A stretch of 7,388 bases of DNA from a virus (taxonomy: Duplodnaviria > Heunggongvirae > Uroviricota > Caudoviricetes): the IMG/VR virus record IMGVR_UViG_2663762839_000012; one strand, 5' to 3'. Below are positions 5,514 through 5,846 of this stretch, in pieces; position 1 is the stretch's first letter, and each line of letters starts with the position of its first letter. Both the position numbers and the translations under genes were made by a program. Below the pieces are notes generated by a model. It made no database searches. It saw only the letters and a list, made by a program, of their open reading frames with translations, and had not been told where the DNA came from.

Positions 5514-5846
5514 ATGAAAATGAAAAGAAACCTTCCGTTAATTATTTTGTTGTCTTCTCTGGTTATGGGCTGTACGCAACATAAAACAGATATGCCCCGA
5601 CAGTTGGTTAAGGCATTACCACAATATCCGGCCTATGCAGCGGCAAATTATATAAAGGGACGGGTTGATGTGAAGTTTGATATTGGTGCTGATGGTACTG
5701 TCACCCGAATTGAGTTTATCCGTTCAGAGCCGCACCATTTGTTTGATGAGCAGGTTGTAAAGGCGATGGCAAAATGGCGATTTGAGAAGGACAGGCCGTG
5801 TAAAGGCGTGAAGAAAACGTTTATCTTTAGTCCTTCTGCACCCTGA
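5514..5846 (+). CDS. Predicted lipoprotein with a TonB C-terminal-like domain (110 aa)
   Basis: N-terminus MKMKRNLPLIILLSSLVMGC has a signal peptide and a lipobox-like LVMGC. The remainder, PQYPAYAAANYIKGRVDVKFDIGADGTVTRIEFIRSEPHHLFDEQVVKAMAKWRFEK, follows the TonB_C pattern (P-x-YP-x-x-A ... G-x-V-x-V-x-F-x-I-x-x-DG-x-V ... S-x-x-x-x-L-D-x-x-A-x-x-A-x-x-x-W-x-F) as I recall it. Start could be ATG 5514 or ATG 5520 (the ORF-track GTG at 5505 is less likely). Stop TGA at 5844-5846. Confidence 0.6.
   Translation: MKMKRNLPLIILLSSLVMGCTQHKTDMPRQLVKALPQYPAYAAANYIKGRVDVKFDIGADGTVTRIEFIRSEPHHLFDEQVVKAMAKWRFEKDRPCKGVKKTFIFSPSAP

Follow-up and report, generated by a model that had tools for sequence, protein, structure and literature searches.

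The TonB-domain gene in the Rz-to-cos interval

A 7,388-nucleotide stretch of DNA from a tailed phage (Caudoviricetes; IMG/VR record IMGVR_UViG_2663762839_000012), called the window at its full length here, contains late genes of a lambda-like prophage. Among these, a short gene at positions 5520-5846 encodes a predicted lipoprotein with a complete TonB C-terminal domain. The gene, its parts and the boundaries of the interval in which it lies are as follows.

4454-4927, + strand: Rz i-spanin gene (PF03245, 7e-50), upstream boundary of the interval
4680-4865, + strand: Rz1 o-spanin gene, embedded in Rz (PF06085, 1.5e-19)
5460-5487, + strand: predicted sigma-70 promoter, with the -35 element ATGACC at 5460-5465 and the extended -10 element TGtTAGAAT (TGTTAGAAT) at 5479-5487 (consensus scan)
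5483-5499: perfect 8-1-8 palindrome AGAATAAGACTTATTCT of 17 nucleotides, overlapping the -10 element and the likely transcription start
5520-5846, + strand: TonB-domain lipoprotein gene, 108 residues, TGA stop at 5844-5846
5520-5573, + strand: predicted signal peptide, residues 1-17 (MKRNLPLIILLSSLVMG), and lipidated Cys18 (PS51257-type pattern)
5595-5831, + strand: TonB C-terminal domain, residues 26-104, equivalent to approximately residues 153-231 of E. coli TonB (Pfam, TIGRFAM, PDB and structure model)
residues 34-37: PxYP motif within the TonB C-terminal domain
residues 94-103: last strand, whose counterpart in TonB pairs with the TonB box of the receptor
6385-6396, + strand: cosN, the lambda-type cohesive end GGGCGGCGACCT, downstream boundary of the interval

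A first-pass annotation of the window, made from the sequence alone, had placed the gene between Rz and cos, where lambda carries bor. This placement was borne out, with Rz/Rz1 upstream, cosN downstream, bor present in the corresponding interval of lambda and 87% identity between window positions 6044-6384 and the right end of lambda. The description of the interval as the place of bor is correct as to position, but the gene is not an alternative to bor, since the two coexist in phage 21 and in the prophage of a strain of sequence type 131 (ST131). No bor remnant was found between Rz and the TonB-domain gene in the window.

The reading frame is open from the GTG at 5505, the ATG at 5514 or the ATG at 5520 through the TGA at 5844-5846. 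The first-pass annotation had let the gene begin at 5514, which is probably 6 nucleotides too early. The ribosome-binding site GGGA at 5510-5513 directly abuts 5514 and lies 6 nucleotides ahead of the ATG at 5520, and the corresponding start codon (MKR...) is used in RefSeq WP_000828068.1 (108 residues) and in the curated phage 21 record. Since all three agree, the true start is probably 5520, giving a protein of 108 residues.

The gene was 100% identical to the copy in strain ARS-C301, and the protein 100% identical to those of Stx1a phages and phage Lys8385Vzw. Database names include "TonB family protein" (RefSeq) and "TonB C-terminal domain protein", and an EDL933-derived annotation quoted in one phage record reads 'partial tonB-like membrane protein'. 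The existence of the gene and its domain is already on record and the sequence is not new. Papers naming CP-933N or 'TonB-like' concerned other genes or merely listed an unidentified one, and the TonB-domain gene is not discussed in the phage 21 genome announcement.

A complete TonB C-terminal domain behind a predicted lipoprotein signal peptide

The TonB C-terminal domain signature read from the sequence in the first-pass annotation proved to be a complete domain. The Pfam profile PF03544 (TonB_C) matched with E = 1.3e-14 and 54.8 bits (cutoff 24.6) and TIGR01352 with 54.6 bits (cutoff 27.1), and a Pfam scan of the protein gave TonB_C and TonB_2 and nothing else. In a phmmer search against the PDB, residues 26-104 were aligned ungapped to the C-terminal domains of Salmonella and E. 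coli TonB (E = 4e-16 to 6e-16). The identity to residues 153-231 of enterobacterial TonB was 39-42%, also without gaps.

A structure model from AlphaFold2, run on a cross-genus alignment, had a predicted local distance difference test score (pLDDT) of 86.7 overall and 96-98 in the domain. It superseded a run on a shallow E. coli-only alignment, which gave a pLDDT of 64 and a template modelling (TM) score of approximately 0.5-0.6. The fold of the TonB C-terminal domain (helix, two strands, helix, strand) is present in the model, which agreed with TonB from the BtuB complex (2GSK_B) to 1.0 Å and with TonB from the FhuA complex (2GRX_C) to 1.2 Å, with a TM score of 0.92. Ranks 1-16 of a Foldseek search of the PDB were occupied by TonB-family C-terminal domains, FusB and TonB2 among them, with a best root mean square deviation of 1.0-1.4 Å, followed by TolA-type domains. 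The core of the TonB fold is kept at P161, Y163, P164, G174, G186, F180, F202, W213 and F230, with Y215 present as Phe, and L170 of TonB is replaced by Asn.

The full-length TonB equivalog profiles NF008080-NF008084 gave only 49-74 bits, far below their cutoffs of 265-448, since the first two-thirds of TonB are missing; just profile positions from about 152 to 240 were matched. The protein belongs to the TonB_C domain family, yet it is no TonB, since the membrane anchor and the proline-rich spacer are lacking and a lipoprotein signal peptide is found in their place.

The lipoprotein prediction also held. A match to the PROSITE PS51257-type pattern spans residues 8-18 (IILLSSLVMGC), with the lipobox LVMG followed by C18, and the n-region is basic (K2, R3). 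Because the residue at +2 is Thr and not Asp, there is no signal for retention in the inner membrane, and the Lol sorting rule predicts a lipoprotein sorted to the outer membrane. The lipobox and its Cys were found in 14 of 15 aligned relatives, only P0138 and P0112 being without, and the +2 residue was Ser, Thr or Ala throughout. The distance from the Cys to the PxYP motif is short in the relatives, at 16-24 residues.

Distribution, genomic context and selection

Of 5426 complete E. coli genomes, 1616 (approximately 30%) carried the gene family, with up to 4 copies per genome, and the coverage was at least 80% in 1612 of the 1616 carriers. Two clades were distinguished in E. coli: the clade of the window (clade 1; at least 95% nucleotide identity) in 414 genomes and the phage-21-like clade (clade 2; approximately 74%) in about 1200 genomes. 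Among 50,697 phage records, 15 contained the gene, and their contexts were mosaic. Carriers include Stx1a-converting phages, Lys8385Vzw, JLK-2012, phage 21 and several gut coliphages, and in the ST131 strain JJ1887 the gene is located in an icd-integrated phage-21-like prophage, adjoining iss. The last 250 residues of the phage 21 J protein are only 57% identical to lambda J, a similarity too low to assign a receptor, TonB-dependent or other, to the carrier phages.

The alleles of the window and of phage 21 differ in 28% of their residues, with a ratio of nonsynonymous to synonymous substitution rates (dN/dS) of 0.13 overall and 0.10 in the domain. Purifying selection on the gene is strong, and the gene is real and selected.

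Outside E. coli, an exhaustive profile-free search revealed full-length relatives of 107-133 residues with 32-49% identity. By their cluster names, these belong to Salmonella enterica (at least 1000 contigs), Rahnella, Erwinia, Pantoea, Serratia, Citrobacter and probably Gibbsiella, and a Klebsiella phage likewise carries a relative. In at least eight genera the relatives keep the lipobox, a +2 residue other than Asp and the short spacing between the Cys and the PxYP motif.

The loci of the relatives were located by single-protein scans. In all loci with identified neighbours the gene has the orientation of the spanin genes and directly follows them, with the terminase genes further downstream; the exception is a single Pantoea locus, in which the neighbours were unidentified. 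This position is the same despite unrelated flanking lysis and packaging modules. The window has Rz/Rz1 and Nu1, and strain ES5 has the lysis module of the window but an HNH endonuclease and a different terminase. The Salmonella locus has a GH19 endolysin and a DUF2514-family protein in the i-spanin position, and the Serratia locus a LysC-type o-spanin and a Terminase_3 large subunit.

Bor or Iss adjoins the gene in 46 of 73 clade-2 loci and in none of the 80 clade-1 loci, and phage 21 has bor and the TonB-domain gene together. Other genes were also observed beside it. A YlcI/YnfO gene is found next to it in 77 of the 80 clade-1 loci and is absent from the phage 21 clade. In a Citrobacter prophage (locus L014, 5449-5871) a homologue of Ivy, the inhibitor of vertebrate lysozyme (PF08816, 7e-19), follows directly and represents further periplasmic protective cargo in the same slot, and in a Serratia prophage (locus L017, 5410-5664) a homologue of the DNA polymerase III theta subunit (PF06440, 1e-34) is located just downstream.

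The cargo of phage 21 also includes genes of the Sit iron/manganese transporter, with sitBCD in the stretch examined (locus L005, 13968-16001). sitBCD was present in each of the six distinct phages of the phage 21 clade that carry the TonB-domain gene, while 20 other sit-positive phage records were without the TonB-domain gene and the Stx1a clade was without sit. The co-occurrence with sit was not used as evidence, since shared ancestry confounds it and it does not extend to the Stx1a clade.

Predicted promoter, Fur boxes and terminators

The predicted extended -10 element is near-invariant across the 80 clade-1 loci. It is kept as TGTCAGAAT in phage 21 and as TGTTAGTAT in Salmonella and Citrobacter, where the flanks have diverged. 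The palindrome that overlaps it in the window amounts to a weak Fur-box-like site (13/19 at 5485-5503), located where relatives have a canonical Fur box. This site, which scores 9/14 on the 7-1-7 form of the box, is one of seven sites of such quality in the 7.4-kb window, and in phage 21 the right arm of the palindrome is missing.

The relatives displayed far better matches. The extended -10 element is directly followed by a Fur box that matches the 7-1-7 form perfectly, TGATAATnATTATCA (14/14), in eight Salmonella loci and one Citrobacter locus; the sequence of the Salmonella site is TGATAATTATTATCA, and a predicted -10 of the Salmonella locus is inside the box. In Serratia (6 loci) a 13/14 box is found 60 nucleotides upstream of the start. 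The canonical boxes of these three genera lie 29-66 nucleotides ahead of the start codon and are the top Fur-like site in each locus of 5-10 kb, with a second, equal site in one Serratia locus. When the two loci tested were shuffled 200 times, no box of canonical grade arose (expected number 0.00). Intermediate matches, 10-12 of 14, precede the copies of Klebsiella and Pantoea, and no Fur box was found upstream of the Rahnella copy. On these matches, control of the Salmonella, Citrobacter and Serratia relatives by iron through Fur appears well supported, and iron control of the copy in the window is a weak possibility.

The Serratia copy is followed by a predicted strong terminator of its own; no convincing terminator was found after the copy in the window. 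Further Fur-like sites were observed in the window outside the promoter region. A weak one, AGAAATTAATTATCA at 5857-5871, begins 11 nucleotides past the stop of the TonB-domain gene and deviates from the 7-1-7 form at 3 positions. A perfect Fur-box consensus, TGATAATCATTATCA, is found at 6334-6348, 36 nucleotides left of the cohesive end and before the cosQ-like GGGTCC. The identical 15-mer TGATAATCATTATCA is present in phage lambda (NC_001416, 48452-48466), and in the window a promoter-like sequence, TTGTGA-16-GATAAT at 6313-6340, overlaps the site.

Proposed function of the TonB-domain lipoprotein

In the BtuB-TonB and FhuA-TonB structures the TonB box of the receptor pairs as a strand with the last strand of the TonB domain, and TonB is scarce relative to its receptors. 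The gene may be depicted as a self-contained prophage cargo gene ('moron') that would act at this contact. A tether of approximately 8-16 residues would keep the complete TonB C-terminal domain just beneath the outer membrane. Since the inner-membrane anchor, the region that couples to ExbB/ExbD and the proline-rich spacer are all lacking, such a TonB head could dock but not pull. Its target would be the periplasmic TonB boxes of FhuA, FepA, CirA, BtuB and other TonB-dependent transporters, the TonB boxes of incoming colicins, or the head of TonB itself, and binding to any of these would lead to dominant-negative inhibition of TonB-dependent uptake. The lysogen would gain a lower sensitivity to TonB-dependent phages (T1 and phi80 types), group B colicins and siderophore-microcins, at the cost of less siderophore and vitamin B12 uptake. 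In the Salmonella, Citrobacter and Serratia relatives, iron starvation probably switches the gene on via Fur when the receptors are most abundant; the boxes fit a blocking role because TonB-dependent receptors are induced in the same condition.

We give nearly an even chance to the proposal that an outer-membrane-tethered TonB head, unable to transduce energy, blocks the coupling between TonB and its receptors. It builds on the observed domain identity, lipobox, fold, position, selection and prevalence, and on the Fur boxes of the relatives. From these we infer the export and localisation of the protein, its binding partner, the inhibitory effect and the phenotype. In a wider form, in which temperate phages of the Enterobacterales captured a TonB head, anchored it by lipid, placed it under Fur control in several genera and thereby gate all TonB-dependent receptors, the proposal is possible but rather doubtful.

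Precedents have been published. Iron import by TonB-dependent transporters is inhibited when a periplasmic TonB domain is over-expressed, and colicin killing and phi80 infection are reduced by a TonB-box pentapeptide, according to passages of PMC9841981 that cite Howard 2001 and Tuckman 1992. The phage outer-membrane lipoproteins Llp of T5 and Cor act on a TonB-dependent transporter from its periplasmic face (bioRxiv 10.64898/2026.03.26.714494). The functional reading offered in the first-pass annotation, a competitor of TonB at TonB-box receptors that could block the entry of phages or colicins or alter iron uptake, is made more plausible by the presence of the docking domain alone, by the inhibitory TonB fragments, by the Fur boxes and by the purifying selection.

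Comparison with known systems

The prophage protein resembles TonB (P02929 and enterobacterial orthologues) in its 39-42% identity, the order of secondary structure elements, the agreement of the model at 1.0-1.4 Å, the PxYP motif and the aromatic core. It also ends about where the order of receptor-bound TonB ends (2GSK_B has 81 residues, and the alignment 79 columns). Unlike TonB, it has no transmembrane anchor, proline-rich spacer or periplasmic linker, and so can neither couple to ExbB/ExbD nor transduce energy. A lipoprotein signal and a predicted outer-membrane tether take their place, and the protein is encoded by a prophage and not at the tonB locus.

The closest functional analogues of the proposed blocker are recombinant TonB fragments, in which a periplasmic head is likewise detached from the motor in the inner membrane. 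As cited in PMC9841981, Howard, Herrmann, Stratilo and Braun (2001, J Bacteriol 183:5885) reportedly found that periplasmic TonB fragments inhibit transport through FhuA and FecA. Those fragments were soluble, over-expressed laboratory constructs, whereas the gene described here is natural and selected, has predicted regulation of its own and encodes a product predicted to be lipid-anchored.

Llp (T5) and Cor (phi80, N15, HK022) are also small phage lipoproteins of the inner leaflet of the outer membrane, and they inactivate FhuA from the periplasmic side, which results in superinfection exclusion (bioRxiv 10.64898/2026.03.26.714494). They are unrelated to the TonB-domain protein in sequence and fold, the fold search with the latter giving TonB and TolA domains only. 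Llp is allosteric on one receptor and its gene adjoins the gene for the receptor-binding protein, whereas the TonB-domain protein would act on the shared TonB box and hence on all TonB-dependent receptors.

Bor and Iss share with it the Rz-to-cos cargo slot, the small size, the outer-membrane lipoprotein character and expression from the prophage, but they are unrelated proteins encoded on the opposite strand, and their genes coexist with the TonB-domain gene in phage 21 and ST131. Rz1 and other o-spanins are similar in being small lipoproteins encoded in the lysis region. The TonB-domain gene, however, is neither embedded in nor overlapping the i-spanin gene, and its product is not proline-rich.

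Alternative explanations

Several observations weigh against the blocking of TonB-receptor coupling. The TonB residues tied genetically to recognition of the TonB box are not conserved: Leu, Tyr or His takes the place of Q160, nearly every family member has Tyr for R166, and position R158 varies across the family. Q160 and R166 of TonB have genetic and structural links to contacts with the TonB box and the plug. No Fur box was found in the phage 21 clade (10/19), the commonest in E. coli, and the promoter in the window has just the 13/19 Fur-like site. A block of TonB under iron starvation should be costly to the host, which makes the net benefit doubtful. The late-operon orientation, directly after the spanin genes wherever neighbours were identified, makes a role in lytic growth conceivable. 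The PADLOC defence library gave only a chance-level match (E = 0.022), and full-text literature searches found no study testing or discussing the function of the gene.

The non-conserved recognition residues are also what would be expected of an envelope or virulence factor acting outside TonB signalling, like Bor or Iss, in which a TonB/TolA-type fold is merely reused and which would alter serum resistance, peptidoglycan contact or membrane stability. Such a factor would be in suitable company, with bor or iss as a neighbour in phage 21, in ST131 JJ1887 and in the 46 clade-2 loci, and with Ivy adjoining the Citrobacter copy, as if the slot gathered envelope-directed cargo. The identity to host TonB and the agreement of the model at approximately 1 Å argue instead that TonB-like contacts are retained, and the canonical Fur boxes of the relatives tie the gene to iron physiology; we consider an envelope role of this kind unlikely. 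The region equivalent to TonB 158-166, which contacts TonB boxes, varies between clades as if specificity were tuned, which would suit a bacteriocin decoy. The tethered head would then capture the TonB boxes of incoming colicins or microcins, or of a phage protein, and not those of the receptors of its own cell, so that import is stalled at the inner face of the outer membrane and iron uptake is little affected. The domain and tether are predicted to put a TonB-box-binding surface right at the outer membrane, and the Fur-linked expression of the relatives suits the iron-limited conditions that induce the receptors. Discrimination between own receptors and toxins would be hard, however, because TonB-box binding is mostly backbone strand pairing (2GSK, 2GRX), and the decoy is a sub-variant of the blocking of TonB-receptor coupling without a separate mechanism. 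As an explanation in its own right it is improbable.

The remaining explanations are weaker than these. A lytic-cycle accessory, transcribed late with the spanins, could act in lysis or late infection by loosening TonB-mediated links between the membranes or by stopping TonB-dependent receptor uptake in the infected cell. The gene is found directly behind three unrelated spanin types (Rz/Rz1, the DUF2514 protein and LysC) on the same strand, and PHROG 1267, which matched at 7.7e-43, is labelled 'Rz-like spanin'. A spanin identity was rejected, as the window has a separate and complete Rz/Rz1 pair and the gene for the folded TonB domain lies 593 base pairs further downstream; the label is best explained as a reflection of gene position, not function. 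The model shows a globular TonB domain and not a proline-rich o-spanin, the predicted Fur-controlled promoter region and terminator of relatives mark prophage-expressed cargo, and the gene is intact although the prophage has lost its holin and half of its endolysin, all of which leaves a lytic role with little probability. A positive role in iron acquisition, in which the head readies ligand-loaded receptors for TonB or alters receptor signalling, would agree with the Fur boxes of the relatives and with sitBCD in the six phage-21-clade phages. It is nevertheless very improbable, having neither an energy source nor a known mechanism; the link to sit is confounded by ancestry, with 20 sit-positive records lacking the gene and a Stx1a clade lacking sit, and the TonB fragments described in the passages of PMC9841981 referred to above inhibit rather than stimulate. 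Finally, that only the last third of TonB is present, in a decaying prophage, might suggest an inert leftover of a captured tonB fragment. This is hardly credible given a dN/dS of 0.13 across 28% protein divergence and intact copies in 1612 of 1616 E. coli carriers, and the selection, together with a lipoprotein signal peptide that was added and is conserved in at least eight genera, essentially excludes a remnant.

The blocking of TonB-receptor coupling would have practical consequences, as the gene is common, being present in approximately 30% of complete E. coli genomes, in Stx1a-converting phages, in phage 21 and beside iss in ST131, and also widespread in prophages of Salmonella, Klebsiella, Citrobacter and Serratia. 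If TonB function is damped in such lysogens, their susceptibility to TonB-dependent phages would change, with relevance to phage therapy and phage typing, and their susceptibility to colicins, microcins and possibly siderophore-conjugated antibiotics would be affected together with host iron acquisition. The protein would then be a virus-encoded mimic of a host energy-transducer domain by which iron-starved lysogens resist whole classes of TonB-dependent phages, colicins and microcins. For an antibiotic strategy aimed at the contact between TonB and the TonB box, it would provide a natural proof of principle. Confirmation would add a new way for a prophage to alter traffic at the host surface, by a mechanism unlike that of the receptor-specific Cor and Llp.

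Flanking features and state of the prophage

The other features identified in the window are as follows.

1-3239, - strand: aceA/aceB of E. coli, 98.5-99.9% identical to many genomes
from approximately 3228 onward: late region of the lambda-like prophage
3235-3504: DUF826 gene of the prophage
3610-3972: truncated lysozyme gene
4933-5175: fragment of a phage gene, matching PHROG 2571 in its middle part only (profile positions 98-172 of 291)
5978-6178, - strand: YlcI/YnfO-family (DUF3950) gene, convergent with the TonB-domain gene (PF13132, 4.8e-19; NF041551)
6574-7119: Nu1, terminase small subunit (PF07471, 4e-101)

The sequence upstream of aceB is joined to the DUF826 gene at 3228-3239, where the two matching segments share approximately 12 bases. 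This junction was found in none of the 5426 complete E. coli genomes, and both halves were found in all of them; it reflects a rearrangement specific to the strain or else a chimeric assembly. In comparison with strain ES5, the window lacks 729 base pairs at 3576-3581, with 6 bases overlapping where the two sides join. The missing segment (3355-4083 in locus L004) comprises the holin gene, a YdfR-family gene and approximately 137 nucleotides from the start of the endolysin gene. Because the holin and the start of the endolysin gene are deleted, the prophage is lysis-defective, with the TonB-domain gene intact.

The open reading frame at 4933-5175, between Rz and the TonB-domain gene, is probably a pseudogene, and the annotation of strain ES5 gives its counterpart as a hypothetical gene with a frameshift. 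The YlcI/YnfO gene gave a weak PHROG match to HicB-like antitoxins (E = 0.007), and its product, judged by eye, resembles a small ribbon-helix-helix DNA-binding protein.

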